Assembly (NCBI GenBank): GCA_973895155.1
Contig: OZ316893.1
Span: 17,614,770 to 17,678,769 of the forward strand
Direction of reading: 5' to 3'
Source of the DNA: Marsupella aquatica
Lineage: Eukaryota; Plantae; Marchantiophyta
DNA length: 64,000 nucleotides
Shown here: piece after piece, positions 11,944 through 60,703 of the stretch
Layout: every line of letters begins with the position of its first letter
Numbering within the stretch: the first letter of the stretch is position 1
Program-made: the position numbers and the translations under genes
The notes under the pieces: model-generated
What the model was told of the DNA's origin: nothing
The model's input: the letters and a program-made list of their open reading frames with translations, nothing else
Database searches by the model: none

Positions 11944-12111
11944 TGTTATGACATGTAGATTACACTGTAAGAGACCATTACATTAGACCCTAATATAATA
12001 CCTAGAGATTGAGGTAGTTACCTATTCTAACCATCTCCCAATGTAACACATAAAGGTATTCATTCACAATAGAAGAGACATTCATGTTGGAGCACCCTTT
12101 GAAGTAAAACA
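11944..12111 (+). repeat. 3' LTR of copia element (168 bp)
   Basis: Follows the PPT; TG...CA ends; matches the 5' LTR. Confidence 0.93.
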
Positions 12112-27766: not shown

Positions 27767-27791
27767 TTTTTGCAAAAAACCGGTCGCCGTA

Positions 27792-37592: not shown

Positions 37593-37706
37593 GCCCCTTC
37601 CTTCACGTCGAGTACAAAATCAAAAGTAACTAGCTCACTACACGGCTCCACTCGTAAGGAAAAATGAGTGCCCCCTCCATCTAGCGCCAAAAAACCGGTC
37701 GCCGTA

Positions 37707-40700
37707 TGTCGCACCCCTACCCTGGGCCTTAAATCCGGGTTAGTGTCGTGATGCGACCTCGACCACCAGTAGGGGTGAGGGTTCGGGCAAGGAGGTGTGC
37801 ACTACCTTCATTAGCCCTAAGTCGGGCTAAACCGCTATACTTACTGGTATAACACTCGCATAATTCGTACTTGACATAGGTATATTTATTTTCCACCGCT
37901 GGAATTTTCCCTCAGTTAGTGACGCGGACTAACTCCCGACTTGGGGCTTTTCAAGCCATCGACGTGACAGGAACTTGTGACATGCAATGAGTGGCAATCC
38001 CTACCATTAGTCCGCACCCGGTACGTCCCTTAAAATGGCGCCTTTGCCCGGACAAAGCATACACACAACACCAGTTACTCTCAGAAACATTAGGGGGAAA
38101 AGACTACATTTACTCAGCGAAGCATCAGTTTACATGGTTGACTCGACTTCAAAGGGGGACAGCAGGCCCAACGGCAGTCGATGCCCAGTCTCTACGAGGC
38201 CCTGCCTCGCACTTGCCCAGCAAGCTCGACTCTGGCTCTCACTCCTTGGTACGCTCTGACCCTACTCAGGCCGGGACTCCCCGTGCCTCGCCTTTCTTCT
38301 GCTGAGATAACTAAGCCTTCTCCCCCTTCCCATCGCGGAAGGGGAAGCCTAAATACTACCATAGCGGAAGAGAACCGGAGGATACTACCTTCCGGGGTAC
38401 TACCTACTGACTAACTAACTGCTGACTACTGGTCGCGCTGCACTAACCGGTTGACCATCGACGACGAGTGTGCCAACCGGAATGGCAGCGGCCAAGCCTA
38501 CTGACAAACTCTAGTCCGTTGATGGACTCAATCCTACGTTGGCTGATCCTAACTGACCGGCCCTAATTCTTCCTACTGCCACTAATCGGCGCCTAATGAC
38601 AATCATTCTGTCGTTACGCCTAACTAAAAGATGCTGCTGACTTAACCGCCTTGCACGGCGCCTGCTTCTACCCTTCGCTAACTACCCCTTACGTGTGTGC
38701 AGTGGTTGGACCAGGGCTGGTCCCCTTGTCGGGGCGAGACCTCGAGCCGCCTTGATCAGAGGTGGGCCCAGGTTTTCCCCGCTAGAGGACGAGCAGGGTG
38801 ACGCAGTCCTGCAAAGCCTTGTTGTCCCGTAATGCTTCCTCCGCCTCATTTGCAGCTTCATCGGCTTCAGTCTGGAGCCGCGCCACCTCCAAGTTGAGCT
38901 GGTCGATGGCATTGCAATGGACCTGGTCCTGCGCTAGCAATTTATCTCGTTTGGCGGAGAGACTAGCCACCTGCTGTGCTGCCTGCAGGAATTGTTTGTT
39001 GAGGTCGGTCAGGCTGGTAACCCGAGCCGAAGATTCTGAGCGTAATTGAAGCACGGTGTCGTCCAGCTTCTTGAGTTGGGCCTGCGCTCCGCTTAACTCC
39101 TGGGTTAGTCCGTCCCTCTGTTCGACAATGCGGACTAAATCCTCACGGCAGGTCGTTGCCTCTTCCTCGAGGTGCTCTACCAGCATCTGGAGACGCCCGA
39201 TCTCATTCCCCTTCGCCATGAGTTCTTCTTCCAAGCGGCTGACGATCCGTGGTTGGTGCTCTAACATGAAGAAGGCTGGCTGAAAGTACGCCGAGACTTG
39301 TTGTCCGATGTATGTCGCCAACTCCCCAGACATAGTCTGGCTAAACTTCTGGACCAGGTCGTAGGCCATGGTCCCCGGGGCTACTTGGTAGTCCTCCATC
39401 CTCTCGGGTACCGGTGGTTCCTTGGCAGGGGCAATGAGCTCCTCCGTAGTCAGCGCTGGGAGGGGAAGGTTTCTTCAGGTGGTGGAGGGATTGGGGGTGG
39501 TTGTACTGCAGGTAGCGGAGGCTCAACGGAAGGAGGCGGTGGAATTTCCACAGGGGGCGGTTGCGGAGTATTAGTCGGGGCTTCCGGCTCGGGGTTTGTC
39601 CGAGGGACAGTAGTCCGCGTAGTCGGGGTTGCCTCCTCTGGGGCGAGGGTGACATTACCCGGGGCTGAGGTGGTCGTATTCTTTCCTCTGGCCTCCCGCC
39701 GTGCCTTGTACCAGGCGAGGATAATGGCGATATGACTTCCCAAGTAAGTCTTCCCTCCAATAGCCATACCACCCTGAGCCCGCTTCAGCTCCCCCGAGAA
39801 TCTTTGGTAGAAGAATTGGGCCCAGTTTCGTCGTTTGTACTGTTCCACCTGCACGATCGTGCAGAGGGAAATCTCAGATCGTGGCTCAATCATGTGTAGG
39901 GTAGTTTGTATGAAGTTAAGCCGCTCCATACAGGTTAAGTTGGTGCACGCCCCCTGCTTGTATCCGTTGTCCGTCTTACCCTCGGGTTTGAAGTGCCGCG
40001 GCGTATACTCCTTATCCTGAATTTGGATTTCCACCGGCACCGGCCCGGTTGGTAGGCCAAAAATTTGCGTTAACCGATGCTCCGTGAGTGATAAGGTCTG
40101 CTCCGAAACCTTGGTGGTCGACGCATCAGTGTCAAAATTGGAGATGAACTCACAAATCCCCTTCGGCCCGGTGGCGCACGGCTTCCATAGTAAGTGGGCG
40201 AACCGCTCCAACTGATGCTCCTTGAGATAGTTTGCATGTTCGAGTTTTTTGATCGCGATCCAGACTACCTCGGGGACGCGGATTACCTGTAATAAGTTGG
40301 ACTTCGGGTTATCCGGGGGCCGTCGGGTCTGGTTGGTCGGGGGGTTTGCCAGGGCAGGTGCAGGCGCGGCGTCGGTCCGTGTTGATTCGGGGGCCATCAT
40401 AGTCCTTGACCGCTTACGAGGACACTGTTCGAGTTGCAGACTAGCTCACTCGGAACCCGAAGAACACTCTGCGTTGATTACTGGACGAACTTGGGACTGG
40501 TTCGGCGGTACTCCGGTGGTCATCGGTTGAGGCGCTGGGGTAGCCATATCCCAGTTGAAGGCGTTGGAGCTTTCCCCGAGGAACGTGAGATTACGCGCCG
40601 CTTCCCGTTGTCTGCTGATGTCTTCTTGGCGCTTTTCGGCTGTGATCTGCTGGTCTAGGTACCCCAGAATCTTGTCGAACTTCGCTTGAGTAAGCCGCTG

Positions 40701-41544
40701 GTTGCCCTTCAGCTTAAAGAACTTAGCTGGAACCTCAAGAATCGCCTCTGCTACCGATCTAAGCCCTTCCTCGCTGAGATATAGTTCGGTGATGTAGTCT
40801 CGCAGCTCGTTATAGCTAGAATCCCTGGTGATGGCTGTCCTTTCGCAATTAACCAGTGCTACCTTGGTTACCAGCTTCGCGTACCTTCGTTCGTAAGCGG
40901 CTTTCTCGGGGCAAGAGTACCAGTAAGTCTCGGAGAACTTAGCACCTACCTCGCCAAACAAGGTCCAAAATCCCAAGGCTGTGAGGGTCATACTAACCTC
41001 GTAGTCCGGTTTTTTTTGCGTCCACGTTCCCACCTGGCTGGTCCTTTTTCGCGGAGGCCTCGCTCGTCCTGACTAAATCTCGCCACATTCCGCTCTTCTC
41101 CCTCGATAATTTCCTCGTAAAGGTCGACTGGATTCAATCAAAAAGGCGAGCGGATGGCAGCGTCCGTGAATTCCAAAAAGGTAAACGTGATCGAATGGCC
41201 CGCAGTGCCATCGGCTCCTCTCTTATGGGGGTGCCAGGACGAGCCCGAGCGTGAGAAGGTCAAGTCGTTTGGTCATTGATAACGAGCTGAAGTCGGCGTC
41301 TCGGTCCAAGCGTGATTCTTCTAACTGATTTTTACTCCGCTGCCGCCACCGTACCTCGGTCGTGCGTAATAATCCCTTTCCTGAACTCGTAATTATTCGG
41401 TTATCTTAACCTACTCCTAATCTAATCATAATGGCAACTTGGCGGCTATACGTGCTATTCTACGCTATGGCTACGGTCCTTATGACCGTATAAGTCCTAA
41501 TCTTTGACCTGGGTTTGGTCAAGTGACACGTTGCCCGTGTCACA
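37707..41544 (-). repeat. 5' LTR of element C (3838 bp) containing a frameshifted copy of the accessory gene
   Basis: Direct repeat of 27792-31628. ORF fragments at 40446-41033, 39450-40400 and 38782-39399. Confidence 0.92.
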
Positions 41545-41629
41545 CCGAGTTACATAGCTAACCCGAGTTCGGCTAGCCTAGCTATCCTATCTAACCTTAG
41601 AAGAGTTAACCCGTGGCTTCGGGCTAAGC

Positions 41630-42085
41630 CGCTATCCGTGTCCGTTGTCCGCTATCCGTGTCCGTTGTCCGTGTCAGTTGTCCGTGTCAGTTGTCCGTGT
41701 CCGTTGTCCGTGTTCGTTGTCCGTGTTCGTTGTCCGTGTTTGTTATCCGTGTCCGCTATTTGTGCCTACTGTCTACTATCCGTGTCCGTTGTCCGTGTCC
41801 GTTGTCCGCTATCCATTGTCCGTGTCCGTTGTCCGCTATCCATTGTCCGTGTCCGTTGTCCCAGGTTTAGTCTAACCCCAATCTAAATCCGCTAGCCACT
41901 AGCCACTATCCGGTATCTGTATCCGCTAACCTCTATTCGCTATCCGCTATCCGTGTCCGCTAACCTCTATCCGTATCCGCTATCCATGTCCGCTAACCTC
42001 TATCCGTATCTGCTATCCGTGTCCGCTAACCTCTATCCGTATCCGCTATCCGTGTCCCCTAACCTCTATCCGTATCCGCTATCCC
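41630..42085. repeat. Short-unit tandem arrays (CCGTGT/CCGTTGT and CCGCTAACCTCTATCCGTAT...) inside LTR A
   Basis: Directly visible periodic 6-7 bp and ~32 bp units. Confidence 0.9.
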
Positions 42086-42409
42086 GGGTTACACACTAAC
42101 CCGTCACACTAATAAGATCATATCTTTCCTAATACACCTCTATTTTGAGAGTGTTTTATATCAATTTTACTCGCCTTGACCAGATCTTTCTAATGCTCTT
42201 TACAAATCTGGATTTGGTGACATATTGAAAGAGATATGGTCGCCGACCACCCGCGACATAACTTTTATTTCCCTACTCTTAACGCCATGATTGCCCTTAT
42301 TCTTGCCATCTTGCTAATTGTTATGCAATATCAATAGCTACTCCTTGCATACAGCAGCCTAGTTAATCAGATTAAAGAATAAGGACCATGTCATCGGTGT
42401 CACACATGG

Positions 42410-43448: not shown

Positions 43449-44812
43449 TGTAACATGTTAAGTAGTTTTTTTATTGACTTTAAAAGTGGCTTTGTAATAA
43501 GAGTTGGACTAGTATGAAGTCCGACACTTGGTGGATAGAGTTGGGAGATGAGAATTAGTTATAGTACTGCTGGTGAGTTGGGTTACATTCATTAAGTTTA
43601 GTTTACAAGCGGCTATAACCTCAGTTGTATCACCAACGGTCTGCCAGGGTCATTTCTAGCGGAAGTACTCTTTGAGTAAGCCTAGAACTGTGGAAATGGC
43701 AACCTGTACTTCAGTGGTAACCCGAGTTTCAGTGGCCAAACCCGAGACTCAGCGGTAACCCAAAATTCAGCGGCGTACGGACACACAGTTGTAGGCCTTT
43801 TCCGTGAGAAATGTTATTTTATGGAGAGTTGTAACTTGGGTGATTGTAAGGGTTACCAAGGGGCTACCCTGATTACTCATGTCACCTAGAGGTTGCTGCT
43901 GTTCATGTCCTGTGTAAAAACCAGAATACTGGTGGCAGTTGAGTTGACCTGCGGTAAAAGTAGAAACTTAACCCTGGTTAACTTTAGCGGAAAGTAGTTA
44001 TACTTGGGTTAAGGTAACCACTAACCTAAGTTAGCACCCTAGGCGTGGTTTGGTTTGGCTTGGGTTGGTTTGGAGCCCTGGGGTGTTGAATAAAGGGGAG
44101 AAGCAGGGAGCTGCCTCCTCACTTGTTCACTTGCATATTCTCTTGAAGGATGAAGGCTTGGGGGCTGAGATCTCACTTAGAGAGAGTCAGCATTGGCTTG
44201 AGGCACTAGAGAGAGTGGACAGGGGACTAGTCCACTAGGTAGATAGCAAGGAGAGGGTAGGGGGAAGTGTTGTGATCTAATCTTGTACCATTCCTTGTAG
44301 TAAAGGCTCATGCGGAAGCCTCAGTCTTGAAGTGTCTATCCAGTGATTATTTGAATCCAGTGAGTGTGTATGCAAGCTTTGGTGTGACTCAACCCAAGGG
44401 GGGTGAGACTTGAAGCCAGGGAATAACGGAGGAACCAAGCACTTACCTTGTTGAGATAGGATGTGACGGTCCTGAAGTAAGCAGAGGAAACTCTTGCAGT
44501 GGCAGCCACATTGGGAGTTTGTGGGGACATCTTGTGGGTCTGCACTTACCGTGTTGTGATTGGAAGTGGGAGATGTGAGTATTTTCCAGTGGGAAAATAG
44601 TGGAGTGATAGTCACCCCTCAAGGTTATCTTTCCAACGGTGGAAATAAAACTACCTGGTTGGGTGTGTGGGTGAGTAAGAAGTAAATTTGAGAGTAGAAG
44701 ACCTCCTGTCCTGCTATTTGCAGGTCCTAGGAACCCGGACAACGATAAGAAGGGGCATAAGTGGATGAATTAGCTCTAGTGGAGAGTGAAGCCCCATTGT
44801 AAGGTGTTGACA
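43449..44812 (+). mobile_element. Probable LTR (TGTAACA...TGTTGACA), parent element unclear
   Basis: Inverted TG..CA termini, non-coding LTR-like composition; abuts the stop codon of the MTase-like gene. No TSD or PPT identified. Confidence 0.45.
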
Positions 44813-44815
44813 AGG

Positions 44816-45063
44816 CTATTCCTTTTCCTCCTCCGAGTCCCCTGTACCTTGTTCCTCTCCACCTTCACTGGACTCATCATCAGAATCAAAATTGAGAACC
44901 GATTGAAGTTTATCTCGCTTCTCTTTGTCGGTAGCAAGAACAAGTGGAGGTAAAACCGCAATCTCCTTGGGAGACAACAAATCCATGAAAACCTTTGAAG
45001 CAGTTTCAATAAATTCTTTTCTATGTTCTATCCCACGTACAAACCGCCCAGAGAAGTCCCCTG
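44816..45063 (-). pseudogene. C-terminal remnant of ParB/MTase-like gene copy 2, displaced by element D
   Basis: AGDFSGRFVRGIEHRKEFIETASKVFMDLLSPKE...RDKLQSVLNFDSDDESS matches copy 1 at 870-1070. Confidence 0.85.
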
Positions 45064-48000
45064 TGTGATGCCTAGACAGGAATCACTCGGCCGGTTAAGT
45101 GGGTAAAGCAGGAAGGCACCCTAGGAACACCTTAGTATAGTGACAAAACAAGGAAAATATAAACAATTAGGGGCAACCATGGAACCCGGGCAGAGGCCGG
45201 AGGTAAGGCTGAGGGTGAAAACCCGATTAGGGTTAGGGCGCGTTAAGCGTCGGCGGCTAGGAAGGATCAACGGGAAGAAAGACCGGCAGAGGAGAGGGGT
45301 AAGAAGCGCTTGCAGGAGATGGTGGCTCATTTGCGAGCACGAACTAGGCAGACGACTACGGGAGGCCAACTACTGTCAGCTGCTTAGGCAAGCACTCGGG
45401 GAGAGAGTAGATACCGACGATCAACCTAAGGAGGGTATGAGCAACGTCAATCAAGCGGCACATTTCTGGGGATGCCTGTTCGAACGGGCAACTGAGTACA
45501 TCAAGACTTACGAGGACGAGGAGTCAGAAAGGGCAGCTCGAGAACGGCAGGAGCTCGCTCGATTGTGGGAGCTGCAGAAGACGGCTTTCTTAGGAGGCGA
45601 ACTCATCAAGGACGAGTTCCTGTGGACGCCTACTTCCAATCAACTCGACGATCTTCTGTTTTGCAAAGACAGCATCGTCGGCATCCGAGAGGCCATCAAG
45701 AACTGCAACGACATACACTGGGAATTAAAGGGTAGCACGGAAAGGTGGACCCGGGCAACGGTGCTAGGAGAAACCTCCACGGCAGCAGAGATGAAGAGGA
45801 AGGGAGCCGTCAACGATGAAGCCACCCCGGCAAAAAGAACGAGGTCGGCGGCACCAAAGAAGCCAGCCGAGCAGCAGAGCAGGAGGCAGGGAGAAGCCGA
45901 AGAGGAGGAGGTCGATCCCATCAAGGCCATTCCAACCAGGGATGACACCTGGAAAGGCTGGGCGGCAACCCTACCGGTGGAGGTGCAACTACATTTTGCA
46001 CGGGAGGAGGATGCATGCTTTACGGCCATGCAGACCAAGAAGTACCAAGGCTTCATGGCCGGATCCGGCTTGGAGGCCTTTGTAAGATTACCATGGCTGA
46101 AGCCGGAGGTACCGGAGTCAGACCTATTAGAATTCGTGGGGTCATGGGAACCCGAGACCAATTGCACGAGGATATATGGGAAGGATTTCTATCTTACTCC
46201 CAAGGTGATTGCCGAAGTGTTTGGCTTGCCGATGGGCAATAAGACCAAAGTTGATACCAGGAAGACCTTGCCTGACAAGGAGTTCCGGTCGTTCCCCGGG
46301 CCATCAACGAAGAATGGCTTCTTCCGGAACACCTGCACCAACCCGCACATAGGAGAGATGATCGACTTCTTGTGGGTGACCATGCATTGTAACTTGCCGA
46401 GGGCAGAGATCGGCAAGGCACAGGTCTATCTGGCAGAAAGGCCAGACCCAAGCCGGGACTACAACGGGTACCTCCTCAACCAGTTGAAGAAGATCTTAAA
46501 GGAGGAGCAGCAGGTAATCGGCATGGGGAGCGTGTCGCGGCTTGGCTATCACATGCCGCTGTTGTGCCGGTATGCCAGAGGTCAGACTTTTGCCCCGGTA
46601 CTTCCCCTGCAGGTAAGGGCACCCGAGGAAGCTCCAACGCCGAGGCCGTTGGCTGAGAAGCCTCAACCACCTGTTAGTCCTACGATCGAGCAGGTGTTTA
46701 GGCCCAGGAAGGAAGACTTGCCGATGCAGCAACCAGGCATGCAGAGTCTGCTGAAACTACTGGAGAAAGAAAAGAGATCGGCATCGGCAAAAACAACGGC
46801 AACGGCAACAATGCAGGACACTACTACAGAGGTAGGCCTACACCGGCTCACAAGAGAAAACCCCTTTGTTGGAGACAAGGAGAGAATCAGGCCGGAATCC
46901 AAGCCAGGTGTTCGAATGTACGTGGGAACCTCAAGCTCCGAATCTGAGGCAGAATTGCCTGAAGCTCCTACCAACGAAGAGGAGAGGGAGAAGTCGGACG
47001 TCCAAGAGGTAGAGGAGGCAGTGGAGGACTGCAGCCATGATAATTCCGGCTATGGGTCGGACCATCACGTTCCAGGAGTAAGGACCTGTGGCCGATTTGT
47101 CCCCACACTTCCAAGGGTAGTGCGAGGGGACCCCAACCAGCAGAGTAGCCCTGAGTCTCCCCCACCAGATGTTGCTCCCCCGAGCTTCGACGGCATAAAA
47201 CAGACGGTGCAGGAATTTCAGGAGCGAATCAAGCAGGAGGAAGAGGCCGCCCTGGCTAAGGAAAAGGATTTACCAGGAGGAGATTGGCCGGAGGACATCA
47301 GGCGGCTAGCCGAAAAAGGAAGCAAACCTCTAGCCACGATTGAAGAGATCCGCAGGACGGCTTGGGAGCAGAGGCCACGATGGGCGATGCCGATCACTTC
47401 TACTTACTCCACCTACGCTAAGAATAGAGCCATGGAGTATGGTGAGATGTGTGGGGAACTTGCGCTCGGCATCTTTGGAGAGGAGTTGGAGGTAGGACCC
47501 TTTTTCCATAGGGAGCAGTTGGAGAAGCACCAATTAGAAGAAGCGGTGGCTTTAGAGAGAAGCAAGAAGGACGAGGTCATTCGGCGGCTTAGGAGGATGG
47601 AAGCCGAGATTGAAGATCTAAGGGCGGCCAAGAAAGCCCAAGATGAACTGCGGATTAAACGACATGAGCTGAACATCATGCAGGGGCAGTTGGACGCCGC
47701 GCAGGCTGATAATCAGAATATCAAGGATAAACTGACTCAGACGCAGGAAGAGTTGGCCGACACGATCAAAGAAAGGGAAAAGTGGAAGCAAGAGCTGAAG
47801 AATACAGAGGAGGCCCACATAACAGCCAACAGCCGGGCCATGGCAGAGACCCAAAGAAAGGAATGGGCGTTGAAAGGGGAGCTCGAGAAAATCCGCGGAG
47901 CCCTTGAGCAGAAGGAGGTCGAGTTAGGGAAATCCTATCAAGGGATTATGGCGCTGCAGCAGGAGCTTGCGTCCCTGACGGCCAGCTTCAAGGCCGACCT

Positions 48001-49772
48001 AAGGGAGAAGGACGAGATGCTCGAACAGACTTACGCCAAGATGAACCAGATGGAGTCTGTCATCATTGCAGAGCTCGACAAGGAGCTAAGAGCAACCCAG
48101 GAGGAGAAGGCTACCTTGAAGAAGGAATTGGAGGAAGCCCACAGGGAGCAGGAGGAGGCCAAAAACGAGCTGGAGGGGGCACGTAAGGACCTGGATGAAA
48201 CCCAAGAGGAGTTGGAGGAAATCACGAGGAAGATGGAGAACCTACAGCGGCGGGCCGACAACCAAACAGAGCGGCTGAAGAAACAAGCCGCAGTATTTAA
48301 ATGCTTAGCTGCAGCAGGTCCATCTCCTGTTGGGACAAACCAGTTACCAGGGGTGGTAATTGCCGAAGGACAAGCCGCGCCACCTGCACCAGTGCCGGAG
48401 GTAAGTGGGAAGGGGAAGGGACCAGCTGCCGAGCCACCAACGAAGAAGAAGCGGAAACCTTCAGGGTCAAGGAGTAATACGACTTCACAGGCCGTGGTGA
48501 TCAAGGAGGTAGACCCAGCACCGACCCCAGACAGGGTCACGGCTAAGGATCCAACTACCCTAGGGGAAGGGGAAGCCGAAGCCGTGGGAGTGGCTGAAGC
48601 CAAAGCCGTGGGAGTGGCTGAAGCCGAAGCCGTGGGAGTGGCTGAAGCCGAAGCCGTGGGGGTGGCTGAAGCCGAAGCCGTGGGTATTGCCGAGGCCGGT
48701 GTCGAGGCTGAAGCCGAAGGTGGACCCAGTCAGGCCGATGGAGAGTTGACTCGGTCAATGGCAGGTAATCTGTCAGTAGGCGGGCCAACGGCAGTGGCTG
48801 AGGAGGAAGTGTTGGGGGCGTCCATTGAGGATCCACCACCGGTGTCGTGACGGTGCAAGGGCGCCGTTCCTTTTAGGGAGGGCGGACGTGGAGGGAGGAG
48901 GCGTGAGTGGGCAGGGCGGGCACGGATCTCCACGTTTAGGATTAGGATCAGAACCAGGAGCGGCCCTGACACTTAGCTTAGTGGGATTGCGGTCCCACTG
49001 GTAGGAGCAACACTTGTGCTCCTGCCTTGCTGTACATAGGTAGATTCGGGCAAGTAGATTACTGTTAAGTAGATTAGGCTTACGATGCAAAGAATGGCGG
49101 ATCCACTACCAGGATAAGTACCTGGGCAGCGGGGAGCTCAGGGCCTCTTCTTTAGCAAGTTTTTAGTTTGCACCAGCCGGGCTGGGATCAAGTAGTACGA
49201 GAAGCTCTCGGTTAGTCATACAGTGACCCTTGTGTATATTCATGTTTCCTCATGCCTAAGAGCTGAATAGAGTTGGCCTCACGGCTTAGTTCGCAGAACT
49301 TGTGTATGAGATGTACTGTTTGTATGGCAAGTGCATGGTATGACTCAATCAGAATGAGTCATTTTGCTATTTGTGTGTCGCATTAACTTGTGTGAAGAGT
49401 GCCCACATCTACCAGAAGGAAGGAAAGTAAGCAGGGGAGTGAGAGTTGGATGTGTCGAGCTGAGAGAGGTCTTAGCGGCTTAACCAAGCCTATTGGGGAT
49501 CATTCCGGGGGCGGAATCCAAACATACCTAACAAGACGGAGGGGAAGACAGGGGAAGACAGGGGAAGGCCTATATTAGGCCGGCTACGTATCTCATGACC
49601 CGATGAAGGATCTGTCCAGTATATGTGTGTAAAATGTTAATAGTAGTAGTAGAAGGTTAGCAGCGTCCCATGCCGCTAAGCCGCGGAAACGGCCTCGCCA
49701 AGCACGAAACCTGCGGGAATCGGCTTGAGCTGGGGGGTTTCTTGGGTTTAGGGAGCCATGGGACGCACCACA
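45064..49772 (+). repeat. 5' LTR of element D (4709 bp)
   Basis: TGTGATGCC...GCACCACA, followed by TTTT and the PBS. Confidence 0.95.
45140..48850 (+). CDS. Intact 1236-aa LTR-encoded accessory protein: plant-transposon/PMD-like domain, long coiled coil, AEAEAVGV repeats
   Basis: Uninterrupted 3.7 kb ORF wholly inside the LTR. LLEFVGSWEPETNCTRIYGKDFYLTPKVIAEVFGLPMG; ~250-aa heptad region; homologous to the element C LTR ORF. First ATG at 45179. Confidence 0.85.
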   Translation: MTKQGKYKQLGATMEPGQRPEVRLRVKTRLGLGRVKRRRLGRINGKKDRQRRGVRSACRRWWLICEHELGRRLREANYCQLLRQALGERVDTDDQPKEGMSNVNQAAHFWGCLFERATEYIKTYEDEESERAARERQELARLWELQKTAFLGGELIKDEFLWTPTSNQLDDLLFCKDSIVGIREAIKNCNDIHWELKGSTERWTRATVLGETSTAAEMKRKGAVNDEATPAKRTRSAAPKKPAEQQSRRQGEAEEEEVDPIKAIPTRDDTWKGWAATLPVEVQLHFAREEDACFTAMQTKKYQGFMAGSGLEAFVRLPWLKPEVPESDLLEFVGSWEPETNCTRIYGKDFYLTPKVIAEVFGLPMGNKTKVDTRKTLPDKEFRSFPGPSTKNGFFRNTCTNPHIGEMIDFLWVTMHCNLPRAEIGKAQVYLAERPDPSRDYNGYLLNQLKKILKEEQQVIGMGSVSRLGYHMPLLCRYARGQTFAPVLPLQVRAPEEAPTPRPLAEKPQPPVSPTIEQVFRPRKEDLPMQQPGMQSLLKLLEKEKRSASAKTTATATMQDTTTEVGLHRLTRENPFVGDKERIRPESKPGVRMYVGTSSSESEAELPEAPTNEEEREKSDVQEVEEAVEDCSHDNSGYGSDHHVPGVRTCGRFVPTLPRVVRGDPNQQSSPESPPPDVAPPSFDGIKQTVQEFQERIKQEEEAALAKEKDLPGGDWPEDIRRLAEKGSKPLATIEEIRRTAWEQRPRWAMPITSTYSTYAKNRAMEYGEMCGELALGIFGEELEVGPFFHREQLEKHQLEEAVALERSKKDEVIRRLRRMEAEIEDLRAAKKAQDELRIKRHELNIMQGQLDAAQADNQNIKDKLTQTQEELADTIKEREKWKQELKNTEEAHITANSRAMAETQRKEWALKGELEKIRGALEQKEVELGKSYQGIMALQQELASLTASFKADLREKDEMLEQTYAKMNQMESVIIAELDKELRATQEEKATLKKELEEAHREQEEAKNELEGARKDLDETQEELEEITRKMENLQRRADNQTERLKKQAAVFKCLAAAGPSPVGTNQLPGVVIAEGQAAPPAPVPEVSGKGKGPAAEPPTKKKRKPSGSRSNTTSQAVVIKEVDPAPTPDRVTAKDPTTLGEGEAEAVGVAEAKAVGVAEAEAVGVAEAEAVGVAEAEAVGIAEAGVEAEAEGGPSQADGELTRSMAGNLSVGGPTAVAEEEVLGASIEDPPPVS

Positions 49773-49841
49773 TTTTTGGCGCTAGATGGAGGGGGCATTT
49801 CTTAAGCCGTGAGATATGAAGTTAGAACGGAAGCGTAGGTA

Positions 49842-52835
49842 ATGACTGACCTTACGCCGAGGGAAGAAAGAGTGATTCAACGGGAGAGAGCTCGACTGCA
49901 GCAGCTCGCCGGGTGGCATGATACACAGCGACTGAGAGGGGCAGAAAGAGTTGGTAGCTCCGAAACTGGAAGTGGCGTCGAAGAAGACATACCAGAAGAA
50001 GAGTCGGTAAGGAGAAGTGAGTCTCCAACCGACATGGGGGAACCAGAGGCACGGCCAGACGAGAGGCCAGGGACCAGATTGAGCCAGCGGTCGCGCATAC
50101 ATTACAAGGCATTTCATGGGAGAGGAGATGAGGATCCGGACGAATGGTTGGATGATTTTGAGGGAACCGCTGCAGCAAATGGAGAATCGGCCATCAAGAT
50201 GCAGATTCTTCCCGGCCTGTTCAAGGGTGAGGCTAGGCCTTGGTACAGAGCATTAGATGTGGAAGATCAAGCCATCTGGGATATCTTCAAAACACTCTTT
50301 GTTAAGGAGTTTCGACCCATTGGAACTTCAGAACTAGCAGTGCTGAAGTTGGGACAACTTCGGTTCAAGGAGAACAAATCCTTCAGGAAGTTCTTGCAAC
50401 GCTTTCAGAAACTGGTAAGACGTACAAAGACCAATGCATCTGAAGGTATGCAACTTCAATGGTTGGTGAATGCTTTGCCACAGAAGATGAGTTTTGCAAT
50501 TAGGAAGGAGAACCCGGAGACTTTAGCCGAAGCAATTAAGGATATTCAATTATACATTAATGCAGATATCACAAGCCGGAAGAAACAGCTTAAGTCTGAG
50601 AGTTCCTCATCAGAGGAGGGATCACCCCATAAGAAAAAAGATAAGAAGAAGAAACATTCCAAGAAGTCTAGAAGTGATAAGTCAAGCTCGGATAGTGGAA
50701 GTAGCAAGAGTGAGTCATCTTCTAGTTCTGAAGAAGAAAAAACTAGGAAAAGGAAGGGCAGAAGGAGAGGGAAGACGAAAGTCAAGATGGAGGCTAAGCC
50801 ACCAGATAACATCGTAGCCCTTACCGAGCAACTTAAGGCTATCATTGTAGAGGTAAAACCAAAGAAGAAGGTAGTACAGGAGGATAGCTCTGTATGGTGT
50901 GCCTTATGTTATAAAACCGGACACCATAAAGATGCTTGTCCTAAGCTTAATACTAATCATGTTCGGCATGTGGCCGAGATCAGACCATGTCAGGGAGAAG
51001 TAGAGTACTTTTTGGGAGATGCCGCTGATAGTGTTTTCGGCATCAGTGAGACTGGAGCACGAGACCTATCCAACAGACCTGCATCTCTGTGGTCAGGGTT
51101 AAGGAACAATCCAGGAGAGATGTATCCTCGGATTATTCAGAACCCGTCAGTACCTCCTAGGCCGAATGTGCAAAGATTTGCGGCGTGCTATAATTGTGGT
51201 CAACCTGGCCATTTTGCTAGAGAATGCCCGAATGCACGCAAACAGGGTGATGGACAACCAGCTCAGCTATGTATGGGATGCCGACAGGAAGGTCATATGC
51301 TAGGGCAATGTCCTACTTGGTTGGCAGGCCTAGCCGCAAATCATAAGCTTTTGCCGATCAAGATCTTACCGCCAGGTACTACCCCCGGAGGAGTTCAAAT
51401 CAACCACATCGAACTAGGATGGCAAGAGGATGCCGAGGCAGAGTTCGTACCATCTGATGATGAGGCCGAAGCCCTATCAACCTTCTCAGAGGAGGATTTA
51501 GATCATGATTGCTACCGGGTCTCTACTCGATCTACCAGAAGGAAGGAAAGGTGGGATGGGCTAGCCAAAAATAAAGGGAAGGTTACGGAGGAAAGGATCG
51601 ACTCTTCGTCAACATCAACAGAAGGAGAAGGGAGGGCTCCGGCAATACAGGTAAGCCATGAGCCCACCAGTGAAACCAATCCTTCACAAGATAGCGACTT
51701 CAATCGAGATCATCCTAAGTTGTTCTACCCCTCTGTTACGGCTAGTGTTAAGGAACAACTAAGAGAATTAGAAACCCTGGAGAATACCGAAGCCATTGCC
51801 AAGGATGTAAAACGAGCAAAAGCATTGTTTGCTTCGGAAGACCCAACAGCTGTGGAGACTAGCGTGGCAAAACTGGCCGAATCCAAGACGGAAACACCAC
51901 CAGAAGAGAAGCCGATTGTTCCCTATGACCTGGCTAAAGATGTACTAGAATCTAGAGTCTCGGCAACAGTAGGTCAACTATTGAAAAATAGCCCGTACTT
52001 CCGGAAGCAATTAAGGAAGGCTATTCTCGGCAAGCCGAGATTACCCAAGGTAGCAACCAGAGCCGACGTACTAATGATAGAAGAAGATCAAGGAGCCCCA
52101 GCATTACCATTAATGATTCAAGGAGAATTATTACTCCGGGTACCCATCGATGGAGGATCAGGGGTATGTATTATGATTGATTCAACAGCAAAAGGGTGGG
52201 GTCTAACACCGGAGATGACTGGAAGAGTGTTGAACATGGCCAATGGATATCAGGTCATTCCGACGGGAGTGTTAACCGGCATCAAGATAGAGATAGGAGG
52301 TATCTTCTTTAGCATTAACTATGTAGTAATGAAGCCGGTAAATCCTACGTCATTCCGGCTATTGATTGGTAGGCCATGGCTGTACCTAGCCGAGGTAATA
52401 GAAGATTGGGGTAAAAAGCAGTTCACTTTCGGGACCCCCTCTATCACGGTATCCTGGGACACTAAGGATGACCGTAGGAAAAGCATAAGGGAAGTAGATG
52501 GGTACGATAGTGGACTGGAGTCAGCCGATGAAGTACGTTGGTTAGAATGCTTCACTAACCTAACCGAAGAAGGTGTCTTTGGACCAGAGGTACCCCCCAG
52601 CGGATTATGGCAAGAACCAATGGAAGGTGACTTGGAAGAAGAAGACGAAGAGGTCGAGGACTGCTTTACAATAGAATCCACCTTTTTAGCTGCAATTCCG
52701 GAGGAAGTTAAGGATGTAGACCAATTGGATGAAACGGCTAAGTGGGGAGCAGTAGCAGGGACAGTGGATTTTCTGCAGGCGTTGTGGCAGAGCCGACGGG
52801 GTCCACAACGCCATCGATCATCGGCAAGGAATTAA
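49842..52835 (+). CDS. gag: Gag and aspartic protease of element D
   Basis: DEDPDEWLDDFE capsid-like start, CCHC knuckles (CYNCGQPGHFAREC), VPIDGGSG protease motif, LIGRPWL. Confidence 0.92.
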   Translation: MTDLTPREERVIQRERARLQQLAGWHDTQRLRGAERVGSSETGSGVEEDIPEEESVRRSESPTDMGEPEARPDERPGTRLSQRSRIHYKAFHGRGDEDPDEWLDDFEGTAAANGESAIKMQILPGLFKGEARPWYRALDVEDQAIWDIFKTLFVKEFRPIGTSELAVLKLGQLRFKENKSFRKFLQRFQKLVRRTKTNASEGMQLQWLVNALPQKMSFAIRKENPETLAEAIKDIQLYINADITSRKKQLKSESSSSEEGSPHKKKDKKKKHSKKSRSDKSSSDSGSSKSESSSSSEEEKTRKRKGRRRGKTKVKMEAKPPDNIVALTEQLKAIIVEVKPKKKVVQEDSSVWCALCYKTGHHKDACPKLNTNHVRHVAEIRPCQGEVEYFLGDAADSVFGISETGARDLSNRPASLWSGLRNNPGEMYPRIIQNPSVPPRPNVQRFAACYNCGQPGHFARECPNARKQGDGQPAQLCMGCRQEGHMLGQCPTWLAGLAANHKLLPIKILPPGTTPGGVQINHIELGWQEDAEAEFVPSDDEAEALSTFSEEDLDHDCYRVSTRSTRRKERWDGLAKNKGKVTEERIDSSSTSTEGEGRAPAIQVSHEPTSETNPSQDSDFNRDHPKLFYPSVTASVKEQLRELETLENTEAIAKDVKRAKALFASEDPTAVETSVAKLAESKTETPPEEKPIVPYDLAKDVLESRVSATVGQLLKNSPYFRKQLRKAILGKPRLPKVATRADVLMIEEDQGAPALPLMIQGELLLRVPIDGGSGVCIMIDSTAKGWGLTPEMTGRVLNMANGYQVIPTGVLTGIKIEIGGIFFSINYVVMKPVNPTSFRLLIGRPWLYLAEVIEDWGKKQFTFGTPSITVSWDTKDDRRKSIREVDGYDSGLESADEVRWLECFTNLTEEGVFGPEVPPSGLWQEPMEGDLEEEDEEVEDCFTIESTFLAAIPEEVKDVDQLDETAKWGAVAGTVDFLQALWQSRRGPQRHRSSARN

Positions 52836-55800
52836 AAACCAAGGGATCGGCATACAAGCCGATTACGAGGGCAGAACAAATTGAGGCCCTATTAGAAGCC
52901 GAGAGAGCACAGCGGCCTAACTCTCAGGAGCAAGAGGTGGATGAGATGGACAGACACGATCCAGAGCCAAGGCAGGAAGGGGAGCCGGCCACTAATTCAA
53001 AACTGAATAGACCGGTAAGGGGACAATCTATGGACACCAAGGAAGGGACCGACTCGGCTAGTCCAGCCGAGATCCCAGTTTATGGAGGTATGAGATTAGA
53101 GAGACTGGAAGCCGAACTGGACCCGAATTTGAAGAAGCAGATTAATATGATCCAAGCACGGCAATATCGGAAGCTCGACTTAGGAGAGGGAAGAGAACTG
53201 AACTTAGGGAGAAACCTAGCACCTGAGCTCGAGAAAGAGATCAGTGACTTATTGATTGAATTTCAGGATGTGTTTGCATGGAGTCACCAAGATCTAAAGG
53301 GAGTAGATCCAACACTAGGGGAACATCGAATTGATCTCATGTTAGGAGCCAAATCATTTCGACAACCAATTCGAAGGATGAACCCGAAGTATTCCCTGCT
53401 GGTCAAAACAGAAATCGACAAACTAGTGGAAGCTGGATTCATCACTCCAGTCCTGCATTCAGACTGGGTGTCTCCAATTGTGATAGTTCCCAAGAAAGCT
53501 GGACCCGATGGTAAACCCAAGATCCGGGTTTGTCAGGATTACAGGAAGCTGAATGAAGCAACATTAAAAGACCATTTTCCTTTACCGTTTACTGATATGG
53601 TACTAGACATGGTAGCCAGTCATGAACTATATTCATTCATGGATGGATACTCTGGTTATAACCAAATCAGGATTCGGCAGGAAGACCAAATCAAGACGGC
53701 CTTCATCACGGAATGGGGGATCTATGTCTTCAATCGTATGCCGTTTGGACTCTGCAATGCACCAGCTATGTTCCAACGATTAATGGTGAACATTTTTCAT
53801 GATTACTTGAGAAAGTTCATGGAAATCTTCATTGATGACTTTGCAGTATTCGGGAAGGCATCAAAACATGCTAAATACCTCAGGAAAACCTTCATGAGAT
53901 GTAGGGAGGTGGGTCTCAAGTTACACCTAGATAAATGTTTTTTTGCAGTAACCGAGGGGGTGCTACTAGGTCACAAGGTATCAAGGAAGGGCATTGAGAT
54001 TGACAAAGGTAAGCTAGCAGTATGGCTAGATATCATGCAACCTAAGAACATAAAGGATGTAAGATCCTTCTTGGGATGCATTGGTTACTATCGCCGGTTC
54101 ATCAAGGATTTTGCCAAGCTAGCTTTACCATTAACCAATATGCTCAAGGCAGGAGCAGACTTCGAACCCACACCCGAACGAGTCACAGCGGTAGTAGAAT
54201 TGAAGCAGATGTTAGTAGAGGCCCCAGTCATGATAGCACCGGACTGGAACAAAGATTTTCATGTTTTTGTAGATGTCTCGGGCTTCTGTATTGGCTCAGT
54301 ACTAAGTCAGTTGGATGAGAAAGGAAGGGACCATCCCATATACTTCGCAAGCCGTCAGCTTGCCGATGCCGAACGGAACTACTCTACCACGGAAAGAGAA
54401 GCATTAGGAGTCATTTATTCTTGTAAAAAGTTTAGGCATTATTTACTAGGGTACAAGGTAATCTTTCATACGGATCATGAAAGTTTGAAGTACCTAGTCA
54501 ATAAGCCGGACCTTACAGGCAGAGTAGCACGATGGATTTTGCTATTACAGGAGTTTGACTATGAGCTGAGGATCAAGCCGGGAAAGTTACATGCCAATGC
54601 CGACTTCTTTTCAAGGATCACAGGTAAACCTGCCACGGATTGCATCGATGATCAATTCCCCGACGAGGAGCTATTCGTTGTGGAAATAGCTGGTACATGG
54701 TACCCTGAGATTTTACAATTTCTCAGCACTTCCAGATTACAGCCAGGATTAAGCCGAGAGCAAGCCGCAGTCTTTGTGCGGAAGGTCAGACAATATCAGT
54801 GCATTAAAGGCATACTGCACAAGCATGGAATCAACGGCACGATTCAAAGGTGTTTGGAGAAGAGAGAGGTAAAACGAGTCCTACGGGCCATGCATGGAGA
54901 GGAGGCCGGAGGACATTTTGCCCCAGTAACCACGTCTAAGAAGATATTAAATGCCGGTTACTGGTGGCCCACCTTGCACAAGGATGTCTATCAGTTTATC
55001 AAACAATGCGATCCTTGTCAACGAGCGGGAGGACCAAGGGCGTCCACCAGGCATCCACTGCACCCTATTCTACCTCTGGCACCATTCGAGAAGTGGGGTA
55101 TTGATTACATTGGACCTCTGAAACCACTGACCCACCCTCGACGGAACAAGTACATAATCCTGGCTACGGATTATGCAACTAAATGGGTAGAGGCCAGACC
55201 AACAACGAAGGATGATGCAATTACTACGGCTAGATTCATGTATGAGCAGATCTTCACCAGGTATGGAGCACCCCTAGAATTAGTTAGTGATAGAGGAACC
55301 CATTTTTTGAATGATATAATTAGTCGTTTAAATGAGCAGTATTTAGTTAAACATAGGCCTACTACTCCCTACCATCCAAAGGCAAACGGGTTGACAGAAC
55401 GAGCAAACGGAATCATAGGAAAGATATTGAACAAAACAGTAGCTCAGAACAAACTCGATTGGGATGATAAATTGTTTGCTGCTGTTTTTGCTTACAATCT
55501 TGCCTATAAATCCACTACTGGTCATACACCCTTCTTCTTAACCTTTGGACAAGAAGCCCTGGTACCCATGCAACTTGAGATACCGACATTTCAAGTTACA
55601 ATTGAGGAAAGAGCCTCAGCGGAGGAGAGCCTAAAGGAGCGAGAATATAGGTTAGAAGCTTTAGAGGAAGCGAGAATGATTTCAGCCGAGAGAGTAGAAT
55701 ATAGACAGAATATCATGAAGCAGCAGTATGATAAAAGGTTAAAAGTAGTTAGTATTCATACCGGTGATCTTGTGTTACTTTATGACAGTAGGTATAGTAG

Positions 55801-56008
55801 GTTTCCAGGGAAGCTTTACACTCGCTGGTTAGGACCCTTTAGAGTAACCATGATGTTCCCCAATGGCTCCGTACAATTGGCCAACATTACGGGAGAGGTA
55901 TATCCAGTTCGCATCCATTATGACCGCCTCAAGAAATACTATATGGACGAAGATGAAGTTGTTCGCGAGGACGCTTCACAATTAAGTGGGGAGCTATGTG
56001 ATGCCTAG
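52742..56008 (+). CDS. pol: Pol (RT-RNase H-integrase) of element D, in the -1 frame relative to gag-PR; stop codon lies inside the 3' LTR
   Basis: KIRVCQDYRKLN, MPFGLCNAP, FIDDF, VDVSG, GGHFAP..CDPCQR, WGIDYIGP, SDRGTHF, WLGPF. Confidence 0.94.
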   Translation: MGSSSRDSGFSAGVVAEPTGSTTPSIIGKELKTKGSAYKPITRAEQIEALLEAERAQRPNSQEQEVDEMDRHDPEPRQEGEPATNSKLNRPVRGQSMDTKEGTDSASPAEIPVYGGMRLERLEAELDPNLKKQINMIQARQYRKLDLGEGRELNLGRNLAPELEKEISDLLIEFQDVFAWSHQDLKGVDPTLGEHRIDLMLGAKSFRQPIRRMNPKYSLLVKTEIDKLVEAGFITPVLHSDWVSPIVIVPKKAGPDGKPKIRVCQDYRKLNEATLKDHFPLPFTDMVLDMVASHELYSFMDGYSGYNQIRIRQEDQIKTAFITEWGIYVFNRMPFGLCNAPAMFQRLMVNIFHDYLRKFMEIFIDDFAVFGKASKHAKYLRKTFMRCREVGLKLHLDKCFFAVTEGVLLGHKVSRKGIEIDKGKLAVWLDIMQPKNIKDVRSFLGCIGYYRRFIKDFAKLALPLTNMLKAGADFEPTPERVTAVVELKQMLVEAPVMIAPDWNKDFHVFVDVSGFCIGSVLSQLDEKGRDHPIYFASRQLADAERNYSTTEREALGVIYSCKKFRHYLLGYKVIFHTDHESLKYLVNKPDLTGRVARWILLLQEFDYELRIKPGKLHANADFFSRITGKPATDCIDDQFPDEELFVVEIAGTWYPEILQFLSTSRLQPGLSREQAAVFVRKVRQYQCIKGILHKHGINGTIQRCLEKREVKRVLRAMHGEEAGGHFAPVTTSKKILNAGYWWPTLHKDVYQFIKQCDPCQRAGGPRASTRHPLHPILPLAPFEKWGIDYIGPLKPLTHPRRNKYIILATDYATKWVEARPTTKDDAITTARFMYEQIFTRYGAPLELVSDRGTHFLNDIISRLNEQYLVKHRPTTPYHPKANGLTERANGIIGKILNKTVAQNKLDWDDKLFAAVFAYNLAYKSTTGHTPFFLTFGQEALVPMQLEIPTFQVTIEERASAEESLKEREYRLEALEEARMISAERVEYRQNIMKQQYDKRLKVVSIHTGDLVLLYDSRYSRFPGKLYTRWLGPFRVTMMFPNGSVQLANITGEVYPVRIHYDRLKKYYMDEDEVVREDASQLSGELCDA

Positions 56009-59000: not shown

Positions 59001-60703
59001 CAGAGCTCGACAAGGAGCTAAGAGCAACCCAGGAGGAGAAGGCTACCTTGAAGAAGGAATTGGAGGAAGCCCACAGGGAGCAGGAGGAGGCCAAAACGAG
59101 CTGGAGGGGGCACGTAAGGACCTGGATGAAACCCAAGAGGAGTTGGAGGAAATCACGAGGAAGATGGAGAACCTACAGCGGCGGGCCGACAACCAAACAG
59201 AGCGGCTGAAGAAACAAGCCGCAGTATTTAAATGCTTAGCTGCAGCAGGTCCATCTCCTGTTGGGACAAACCAGTTACCAGGGGTGGTAATTGCCGAAGG
59301 ACAAGCCGCGCCACCTGCACCAGTGCCGGAGGTAAGTGGGAAGGGGAAGGGACCAGCTGCCGAGCCACCAACGAAGAAGAAGCGGAAACCTTCAGGGTCA
59401 AGGAGTAATACGACTTCACAGGCCGTGGTGATCAAGGAGGTAGACCCAGCACCGACCCCAGACAGGGTCACGGCTAAGGATCCAACTACCCTAGGGGAAG
59501 GGGAAGCCGAAGCCGTGGGAGTGGCTGAAGCCGAAGCCGTGGGAGTGGCTGAAGCCGAAGCCGTGGGAGTGGCTGAAGCCGAAGCCGTGGGGGTGGCTGA
59601 AGCCGAAGCCGTGGGTATTGCTGAGGCCGGTGTCGAGGCTGAAGCCGAAGGTGGACCCAGTCAGGCCGATGGAGAGTTGACTCGGTCAATGGCAGGTAAT
59701 CTGTCAGTAGGCGGGCCAACGGCAGTGGCTGAGGAGGAAGTGTTGGGGGCGTCCATTGAGGATCCACCACCGGTGTCGTGACGGTGCAAGGGCGCCGTTC
59801 CTTTTAGGGAGGGCGGACGTGGAGGGAGGAGGCGTGAGTGGGCAGGGCGGGCACGGATCTCCACGTTTAGGATTAGGATCAGAACCAGGAGCGGCCCTGA
59901 CACTTAGCTTAGTGGGATTGCGGTCCCACTGGTAGGAGCAACACTTGTGCTCCTGCCTTGCTGTACATAGGTAGATTCGGGCAAGTAGATTACTGTTAAG
60001 TAGATTAGGCTTACGATGCAAAGAATGGCGGATCCACTACCAGGATAAGTACCTGGGCAGCGGGGAGCTCAGGGCCTCTTCTTTAGCAAGTTTTTAGTTT
60101 GCACCAGCCGGGCTGGGATCAAGTAGTACGAGAAGCTCTCGGTTAGTCATACAGTGACCCTTGTGTATATTCATGTTTCCTCATGCCTAAGAGCTGAATA
60201 GAGTTGGCCTCACGGCTTAGTTCGCAGAACTTGTGTATGAGATGTACTGTTTGTATGGCAAGTGCATGGTATGACTCAGTCAGAATGAGTCATTTTGCTA
60301 TTTGTGTGTCGCATTAACTTGTGTGAAGAGTGCCCACATCTACCAGAAGGAAGGAAAGTAAGCAGGGGAGTGAGAGTTGGATGTGTCGAGCTGAGAGAGG
60401 TCTTAGCGGCTTAACCAAGCCTATTGGGGATCATTCCGGCGGCGGAATCCAAACATACCTAACAAGACGGAGGGGAAGACAGGGGAAGACAGGGGAAGGC
60501 CTATATTAGGCCGGCTACGTATCTCATGACCCGATGAAGGATCTGTCCAGTATATGTGTGTAAAATGTTAATAGTAGTAGTAGAAGGTTAGCAGCGTCCC
60601 ATGCCGCTAAGCCGCGGAAACGGCCTCGCCAAGCACGAAACCTGCGGGAATCGGCTTGAGCTGGGGGGTTTCTTGGGTTTAGGGAGCCATGGGACGCACC
60701 ACA
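55997..60703 (+). repeat. 3' LTR of element D (4707 bp); accessory ORF broken by two 1-bp deletions
   Basis: Direct repeat of the 5' LTR. Frameshifts near 56556 and 59095. Confidence 0.95.

Follow-up and report, generated by a model that had tools for sequence, protein, structure and literature searches.

Can the long terminal repeat (LTR) of a plant retrotransposon itself be a protein gene? Plant LTRs are assumed to be non-coding and extra open reading frames (ORFs) to be internal, but in the 64,000 nucleotides of Marsupella aquatica analysed here (the window) two families have LTRs that consist mostly of one gene, more than 1100 codons long. In the literature on plants we found no earlier report of a protein gene filling an LTR.

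The first element, E1, measures 15.6 kb on the forward strand. Its LTRs (5' LTR 45064–49772, 4709 bp, TG..CA; 3' LTR 55997–60703, 4707 bp) are direct repeats that differ by 13 substitutions and two one-base deletions, and repeat comparison reveals a 5-bp target-site duplication (TSD), CCCTG, on either side (45059–45063 and 60704–60708). The primer binding site (PBS)-like sequence TGGCGCTAGATGGAGGGG (49777–49794), which we take to be of the tRNA-Asn type, follows the 5' LTR after a gap of 4 nt. The internal region (6224 bp) contains only gag and pol: a gag-protease ORF of 997 aa (49842–52835) and a pol ORF for RT, RNase H and integrase (52946–56008) whose stop lies inside the 3' LTR. The polypurine tract (PPT) region (55953–55996) falls within the last pol codons and abuts the 3' LTR; its motif matches the PPTs of relatives (nhmmer E 3e-7; neither E1 nor E2 contributed to the profile). 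The initial annotation, which read the 4.7-kb repeats as gypsy LTRs with a PPT at the end of pol, upstream of the LTR gene, was right on both counts. Segmental duplication as the source of these repeats is ruled out by the TSD, PBS, PPT and TG..CA ends.

E1 is a young, high-copy Ty3/gypsy element. Contig depth shows its family to be very abundant, its gene order gag-PR-RT-RH-INT is that of Ty3/gypsy, and its best solved relative is Ty3 Gag-Pol (E 2e-92). A Pfam scan detected neither a chromodomain nor a second RNase H in pol. E1 thus resembles Athila (OTA non-chromovirus) in having no chromodomain, no additional RNase H and a 5-bp TSD, and differs from Tat (Ogre, Retand, TatI-III), as its single RNase H stretch is not accompanied in that scan by the additional RNase H (aRH). 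The PBS criterion for Athila is tRNA-Asp (72%) or tRNA-Asn (12%); the metagenomic relatives L001 and L005 carry the Asp type, as does FIDEL/Athila, and E1 presumably the Asn type. Phygy and Selgy are short, with a 4-bp TSD, a tRNA-Trp or -Ala PBS and no extra ORF, in contrast to the 5-bp TSD, the 15.6 kb and the extra ORF of E1.

Within the 5' LTR an intact ORF of 1223 aa, counted from the first ATG (45179–48850), begins at LTR position 116 and stops 922 bp short of the CA. It occupies 78% of the LTR, in agreement with the edges first proposed (about 120 bp, about 920 bp and about 80%). None of 1000 Markov simulations exceeded 357 codons without a stop, so that the 1241 codons of its stop-free run are far from what chance would give. 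The 1236 aa originally announced do not stand: this length would require a GTG at 45140, and position 45141 is G in most of the family read depth (4/4 runs). The conserved start is probably Met87 (45437), giving 1137 aa. From this likely start runs an N-terminal domain with an FW motif (45437–45780), common to E2 and some Calypogeia proteins; this homology is only moderate, because a profile of the N-termini of E2, P0028 and P0024 did not recover E1 and the comparison of E1 with P0028 was not significant. In the 3' LTR, one-base deletions at 56556 and 59092 split the ORF into three pieces. The ORF is therefore duplicated, as had been noticed, but only its 5' copy is intact, and the suggested two gene doses per element fail for this copy.

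An ORF with broken copies might be a passenger lacking current function, open as the copy is young and purine-rich. The breaks in the E1 3' copy and in both E2 copies fit this explanation, which is nonetheless barely credible. Among 39 family variants in the E1 ORF (drawn from the best-supported 40 of 152), 21 are synonymous where 11.7 would be expected (P about 0.0015; with trinucleotide matching, 12.8 expected and P 0.003), and the remaining two sense frames present no such excess. Across the ORF the family variants include no stop, and no indel reaches a 30% share. The E1 ORF family is under purifying selection, the passenger explanation being largely refuted by the synonymous excess and the lack of a common indel.

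The sister element E2 (27773–41544, reverse strand; 3.86-kb LTRs at 27773–31628 and 37688–41544) repeats the E1 layout, with the gene inside the LTR. Its pol is 63% identical to that of E1. Each LTR holds a damaged homologous ORF (about 767 codons, counted from the conserved Met), which retains 26% protein similarity to the E1 ORF (E 2e-16) and no DNA similarity. Past this Met the two LTRs carry different breaks, so the damage post-dates insertion, again contrary to what a passenger would predict.

Conservation of the domain extends across lineages, a further argument against a passenger. It is common to 17 of the 18 phmmer matches; the seven named relatives are Calypogeia fissa proteins. A full-length word search gave no match; profile A1 (from an alignment omitting P0015) recovered two proteins and the “longer” profile A2 (omitting P0002, P0007, P0015, P0020 and P0024-P0027) recovered six. 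P0005, a repeat protein, was discarded as a spurious homologue. The accessory protein is conserved lineage-wide, which supports the lineage with such a protein that the initial annotation had proposed.

To which part of the LTR does the gene belong? The TATAAA at 45158–45163 (LTR position 95), a candidate promoter for the gene in the LTR, is the best TATA match of the LTR, with only weaker TATA-like words past the ORF. Were it the sole promoter, a giant R of about 4.3 kb would contain the ORF; the protein would come from transcripts that stop within the 5' LTR, and Gag-Pol from read-through or spliced ones. This arrangement is improbable: on established knowledge, 4.6 kb of R plus U5 would entail an extreme minus-strand strong-stop DNA; E2 has just a weak TATA-like word at this position; and in relatives the entire LTR, 991 bp in L005, lies downstream of the homologous ORF and is the size of the non-coding tail of E1 (48851–49772, 922 bp). 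This tail may thus correspond to an LTR of ancestral size, with promoter, R and U5. A location of the ORF in U3 is favoured by the relatives, which have a true PPT and an LTR just after the homologous ORF. The tail also contains a hairpin followed by an A-rich motif (49503–49528), found in the 3' parts of the LTRs of three window families (6 matches versus 0 in 100 shuffles) and a candidate R/U5 landmark.

The domain was found after pol in 8 of 80 integrase relatives. In L005, L006, L007 and L050 the homologous ORF is internal, between pol and the PPT/LTR start, and the LTRs are short where measured. In L001 and L004 the domain follows a canonical PPT and TG adjoining pol; their ORF seems to be inside the LTR, judging from the PPT and a terminal repeat and not from two full LTRs. 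L005-L007 also retain a PPT-like motif directly behind pol, and L002 and L007 have such a motif plus TG there. The LTR gene of E1 is likely the internal 3' extra ORF of its lineage, a source that had been overlooked. The relatives suggest a simple route to an in-LTR gene, namely a change of PPT: plus-strand priming would have moved to the pol-adjacent PPT and drawn an Athila-type 3' extra ORF into U3. A second PPT is known in Athila. Athila-type elements carry the extra ORF internally after pol, as do L005, L006, L007 and L050 and not E1; it would have the same strand and the same order in the genomic RNA as the E1 ORF, if the latter is in U3, but the E1 ORF is downstream of the PPT, in the LTR, and encodes no transmembrane segment. 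From its position it follows that each element holds the ORF twice and that solo LTRs would retain it.

The direction of this change, from internal to in-LTR, is the one we infer. The converse, an in-LTR state that is ancestral or flips, with the internal-ORF relatives having gained a second PPT behind the ORF, would account for the PPT-like motif and TG retained behind pol in L002 and L007 and gains from a tree that does not resolve how E1/E2, L001/L004 and L005/L002 branch; we hold it to be highly improbable. In the integrase and RT-RH-INT trees, internal-ORF elements sit both inside and outside the clade of E1/E2, and support for the in-LTR state having arisen only once is weak (91/92 for integrase, 76 for RT-RH-INT).

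Other searches were unproductive. A candidate PPT remnant behind the ORF stop was rejected (in E1 it ranks second in the LTR and has no nhmmer match; in E2 it is absent), the metagenome search with P0024 as query returned no locus, and the viral contig search with an integrase query no match.

The core domain of the encoded protein (aa 270-469; 45986–46585) is predicted to adopt a VANC21-like (PMD/Transposase_32-like) fold; Pfam gave no match to this domain. In its model (pLDDT 85.7), the Foldseek top match is the VANC21-DNA structure 9lnj (TM 0.56, runner-up 0.15), with an E of only 0.39; Foldseek matched nothing to an earlier, poorer model (pLDDT 63) built on an untrimmed alignment. VIA-align superposes it on residues 298-529 of VANC21 of VANDAL21 (PDB 9LNJ/9LNK; PMC5735166) with a Z of 8.2 (next 2.0), an rmsd of 3.9 over 194 of 200 residues and 8-9% identity; only 2 of 48,161 chains reach Z ≥ 2, and best Z values of 7-8 are common with this method even where there is no true relative. 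PDB sequence searches gave nothing meaningful, and a BFVD structure search a single weak match (A0A890CAY5, E 0.023).

The initial annotation had a plant-transposon/PMD-like domain, and this stands in part: the predicted fold matches VANC21 and the L007 homologue comes near PF20167, Transposase_32 (162 of 177 positions, E 3e-5, 24 bits, below the cut-off of 45), but the ORF and the scanned homologues have no Pfam match to PMD (PF10536), DUF1985 or DUF287, and no PMD structure was among the matches listed in the PDB structure searches. The link to the PMD of MAIN/MAIL1 and of gypsy PMD-A, the latter described from angiosperm gypsy elements (PMC5418596), thus passes by fold through VANC21, the VANC fold being reported to resemble MAIN/MAIL1 (PMC13547354). 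The finding bears on whether PMD originated in a gypsy element or in a host gene, left undecided in PMC5418596.

Beyond the core, a charged helical stretch without proline, recognized by composition (aa about 775-1045; 47500–48315), is likely a coiled coil; it has a sub-threshold ATG16 match in the Pfam scan, and the heptad test flags only residues 965-1044. An NLS-like KKKRK is present at aa 1090-1094 (48446–48460), and an in-frame 24-bp tandem repeat at 48572–48684 (4.7 copies; 5.3 in the 3' LTR). The E1 ORF has no transmembrane segment (maximum KD19 1.11; 1.0-1.3 in five related ORFs). Both the KKKRK and the non-env-like character had been correctly pointed out. VANC21 is likewise an accessory protein of a transposable element; it has variable repeat-containing regions and a coiled coil through which it is predicted to self-associate (PMC13547354). 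It is encoded by a MuDR element, in contrast to the retrotransposon E1, and E1 lacks DUF1985/DUF287 and target-motif arrays; VANC is described as dicot-specific.

We put at about one in two the probability that E1 carries a conserved in-LTR gene, derived from an internal 3' extra ORF by a PPT shift, whose VANC21/PMD-like nuclear DNA-binding product likely counters the silencing of its own family. The coiled coil would allow oligomerisation and the KKKRK nuclear import. The anti-silencing role is likely in view of the VANC21-like fold predicted for the core domain; since MAIN/MAIL1 use the same fold for host silencing (PMC5418596), the effect of the E1 protein could have either sign.

With the same anatomy and fold, the protein could instead serve replication or integration (RNA export, scaffold of the particle or pre-integration complex, chromatin tether) and leave silencing unchanged. 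Retroelement accessory proteins with such roles have been discussed (PMC7264820), a common fold is no proof of function, and the relatives likewise have a long coiled coil with low-complexity linkers. In E1 and E2 alike, the non-coding DNA also showed no VANC-type arrays of short motifs; 6-9-mer counts there are at the Markov null or within one count of it and the only repeat is 10 bp x 2.8. We regard this alternative as possible, if on the unlikely side, given that the core domain has one structural neighbour only, an anti-silencing factor that binds DNA sequence-specifically, and that the host relatives of the fold are chromatin regulators (PMC5418596, PMC13547354).

An anti-silencing gene in the LTR would go further if it had its own promoter close to the LTR 5' end, as may be the case: each LTR or solo LTR would then be a complete promoter-ORF-terminator unit. 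That such a bryophyte gypsy LTR is a self-contained anti-silencing gene, each LTR or solo LTR encoding a VANC-like factor that binds DNA sequence-specifically and removes methylation from its own family in trans, is a tentative and rather doubtful proposal. If true, no VANC-type system would have been known from a retrotransposon before, and the VANC/PMD fold would reach back as far as non-seed plants and into retroelements; LTR-LTR recombination, the main deletion route of the host, would spare the counter-defence gene. Since the 3' LTR supplies the U3 of each daughter LTR, the frameshifted gene would pass to the daughters of this copy, and these would depend on protein supplied in trans.

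A protein gene mostly within U3 is found in MMTV, whose sag, about a quarter of the size of the E1 ORF, likewise lies inside the LTR. It differs in being a membrane superantigen of an animal betaretrovirus, unrelated to the E1 protein. MMTV sag has several promoters including one in U3, is kept in solo LTRs, and its LTR is alignable in deep time (PMC4667437). Athila-like elements have 3' extra ORFs that have long gone unexplained, and the predicted VANC/PMD fold offers a testable function for them. LTR-finding tools with size limits would overlook E1-like elements, and annotation would take solo LTRs of this lineage for host genes; several “unnamed proteins” of Calypogeia are homologues of the E1 protein.

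E1, a Ty3/gypsy element of 15,640 bp, is complete, and region 45064-49772 is its 5' LTR. This repeat and the 3' LTR (55997-60703) are direct, begin with TG and end with CA; between the two there are 13 substitutions and two one-base deletions, and CCCTG flanks them on either side. The PBS sits four T downstream of the 5' LTR, and the PPT falls within the final pol codons, the pol stop lying 12 bases into the 3' LTR. Thus the repeats are real LTRs with a PPT at the end of pol, as the initial annotation had it. The 6224-bp interior is filled by gag-protease and RT-RNase H-integrase. At 52700-52946 gag-PR and pol use different, overlapping frames, while the sister element E2 has a single frame; this reflects either a programmed frameshift or a private indel.

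The gene inside the LTR is real. Its ORF (45179-48850, 1223 aa) covers 78% of the LTR, close to the 80% first estimated; its stop-free run is 1241 codons, against a maximum of 357 in 1000 Markov simulations. Two other initial statements had to be corrected: a length of 1236 aa would require a GTG start missing from most family copies, and the ORF is not intact in both LTRs, two deletions splitting the 3' copy into three pieces. The first frameshift of that copy (deletion plus substitution, 56551-56562) makes this site identical over 11 nt to the beginning of the LTR itself, by chance or by template switch. The actual protein is likely 1137 aa, starting at Met87, because Met87 aligns with the Met at position 551 of the E2 LTR and Calypogeia and metagenomic homologues start 5-10 residues ahead of the same FW motif. 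In N-terminal shuffle tests the counts were 0 of 500 shuffles for E1-E2 and 1 of 500 for E1 and the homologous protein P0014, and not significant for P0028, another homologue. TATAAA lies 280 bases 5' of the Met87 start.

The LTR is present in six contig sets from four studies, all without an RNA label in their records; four of the sets were compared over 45064-48560. Of the best 40 of 152 common family differences, 39 lie within the ORF (21 synonymous, 18 non-synonymous); none of these 39 is a stop, and no indel reaches a 30% share in the four sets. With base matching, 11.7 synonymous differences are expected (P about 0.0015), and with trinucleotide matching 12.8 (P 0.003). In the two remaining sense frames the synonymous count is 8 and 7; it reaches 22 in the antisense frame sharing the wobble position, yet every antisense frame is full of stops. 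The controls, both small, gave 7/9 synonymous for pol (3.0 expected) and 3/7 for gag (2.1 expected). With this excess and the homologous ORF in the E2 LTRs, the reading of the ORF as a conserved gene is supported, and that it is a mere passenger is scarcely credible.

E2 (27773-41544, minus strand) represents a second family, its pol being 63% identical to that of E1. Each of its 3.86-kb LTRs holds a homologous ORF, 26% identical to that of E1 across the core domain (E 2e-16), with DNA similarity absent. From the Met at position 551 the 3' copy stays open for 387 codons and, past a single stop, for another 379; the 5' copy is disrupted at other sites, and in-frame stops 5' of this Met are common to both.

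Metagenome contigs searched with the integrase gave at least 589 matching stretches, 141 of them confirmed; among the matches listed, 80 loci were considered and 8 carry the domain downstream of pol, with a profile that itself contained six of these eight. Independently, a profile of ORF homologues (A2) found loci L002, L005 and L007 (E 2.5e-6 to 2e-5), and a profile of six metagenomic domains found E1 (E 8e-8). L005, a complete circular contig, has in order pol, a PPT-like motif, a 745-codon ORF, a PPT, a 991-bp LTR, an Asp-type PBS and gag. In L006 and L007 a PPT and TG follow at 38 and 66 bases past the ORF stop, and in L050, where parts of both LTRs are present, the domain precedes the PPT. 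L005, L006, L007 and L002 retain a second PPT-like motif just past the pol stop, besides the PPT before the LTR. In L001 and L004 the ORF probably sits inside the LTR, since a canonical PPT and TGTGGGA directly follow pol, the L001 5' LTR terminates in the complementary CTCCCACA, and L004 has no PPT within 215 bases past the ORF. L002 and L074 make up the remainder of the eight loci. A profile of nine such PPT sites detects the PPTs of E1 (E 3e-7) and E2 (2e-6), and no significant remnant downstream of either ORF.

Two trees were built from selected rows, 23 in one and 17 in the other; L050 and other loci whose matches were short or broken were omitted. In both, E1+E2, L001+L004 and L005+L002 form one clade (98/99; 99), with L006/L007 outside, and support for the in-LTR state having arisen once is 91/92 and 76. 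In the simplest history, an internal 3' sense ORF between two PPT-like motifs became U3 once the pol-adjacent PPT took over; the 922-bp non-coding tail of E1 would then be the old LTR. The reverse history of the in-LTR state is very improbable.

The protein comprises an N-terminal domain, a linker, the core (aa 270-469), a long low-complexity linker and a charged, proline-free helix (aa about 775-1045), after which come KKKRK and, last, an acidic repeat tail. The KKKRK motif and the lack of a transmembrane segment had both been noted initially; indeed no hydrophobic segment occurs in the protein. With aa 222-480, phmmer gave 18 matches, 17 carrying the same domain; the seven named relatives are all Calypogeia fissa proteins, which points to a liverwort or similar plant as the probable host. 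Calypogeia fissa proteins annotated as "unnamed", P0032 among them, are retrotransposon products; P0032 fuses a pol to the C-terminal part of the extra-ORF protein. A core model from the trimmed 18-row alignment reached pLDDT 85.7 and pTM 0.83. Its best PDB match by Foldseek is DNA-bound VANC21, the anti-silencing protein of VANDAL21 (E 0.39, probability 0.72, TM 0.56; next TM 0.15). VIA-align superposes 194/200 residues on VANC21 298-529 (Z 8.2, rmsd 3.9; next Z 2.0 among 48,161 chains), with a warning that best Z values of 7-8 are common. Sequence identity is 8-9%, but we retain the match because it is unique, spans the whole domain and involves another plant transposon accessory protein. 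We thus assign the core a predicted VANC21-like fold with moderate confidence. The VANC21 fold reportedly matches the plant mobile domain (PMD) of MAIN/MAIL1, and its self-association via a coiled coil is predicted (available parts of PMC13547354 and bioRxiv 2024.04.02.587720). The PMD-like domain initially proposed stands at most as an indirect resemblance of predicted fold, through VANC21, and not as a family assignment: no Pfam family passes for the LTR ORF or the homologues scanned, the L007 homologue matching PF20167 over 162/177 positions, below the cut-off. Angiosperm PMD-A is encoded by gypsy elements, its ancestry being left open by the authors (PMC5418596, available part).

The structure of the LTR gene, selection on it and its spread in the lineage are observed; its expression and function are proposed as follows. 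Gag-pol RNA would start in the non-coding tail; that the ORF instead lies in a giant R is quite unlikely. Transcription of the ORF may begin at a promoter within the LTR's first 370 bases, in which case each LTR would be a complete gene, or the ORF may be read from RNA spliced into the 3' LTR; we consider both since both exist for MMTV sag (PMC4667437, available part). The protein would be imported into the nucleus, form oligomers, bind element DNA through its predicted VANC/PMD-like domain and, most likely, counter silencing in trans. We give this whole chain a probability of roughly 0.5. VANC21 binds short motifs and causes DNA of its own family to lose methylation (PMC5735166; PMC10398659, available part). 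Unlike VANC systems, the non-coding DNA of E1 and E2 shows no short-motif enrichment or arrays, which counts against a VANC mechanism; a role of the protein in replication or integration is somewhat unlikely.

Extra ORFs are placed in the internal region by PMC7264820 and the available part of PMC6317226, and the available parts of PMC11963269, PMC12885004, PMC12786077 and PMC2844528 describe no LTR-encoded ORF. Neither a plant LTR-encoded gene nor a VANC-fold protein in an LTR was found in the literature searched, which comprised papers available without subscription. The gene is notable for its size, predicted fold and traceable origin.

Several neighbouring features were observed. E2 was inserted as part of a composite (23678-42404): a 5-bp duplication, CTCGG, encloses it together with a complete LTR of 2.3 kb in inverted orientation (25429-27766), which belongs to a different, ORF-less family. 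At their junction, TTTTTG|CAAAAA (27767-27778), two LTR 3' ends seem to be joined tail to tail, each carrying the start of the PBS spacer. Beside the PBS, E2's own LTR has no CA, and it may therefore be the TG end of the foreign LTR that integrase acted on. The ORF-less family carries short tandem-unit arrays in its 5' part (41629-42084, 25768-26030), wholly different between its two copies, a pattern matching that described for VANC target regions, and its 3' part has two segments in common with the E2 LTR. This makes it a possible partner or target family. A hairpin and A-rich motif, a candidate host-type polyadenylation signal, recurs in three families (49503-49528, 27965-27990, 27439-27464), roughly 190-330 nt upstream of the LTR 3' end; by eye, a similar word lies near 44630-44655 in an unrelated LTR-like stretch. 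A decayed copia-like element (5007-12111; short repeats 5007-5202 and 11944-12111) is adjoined by two ORFs (12394-13809), neither with a Pfam match.
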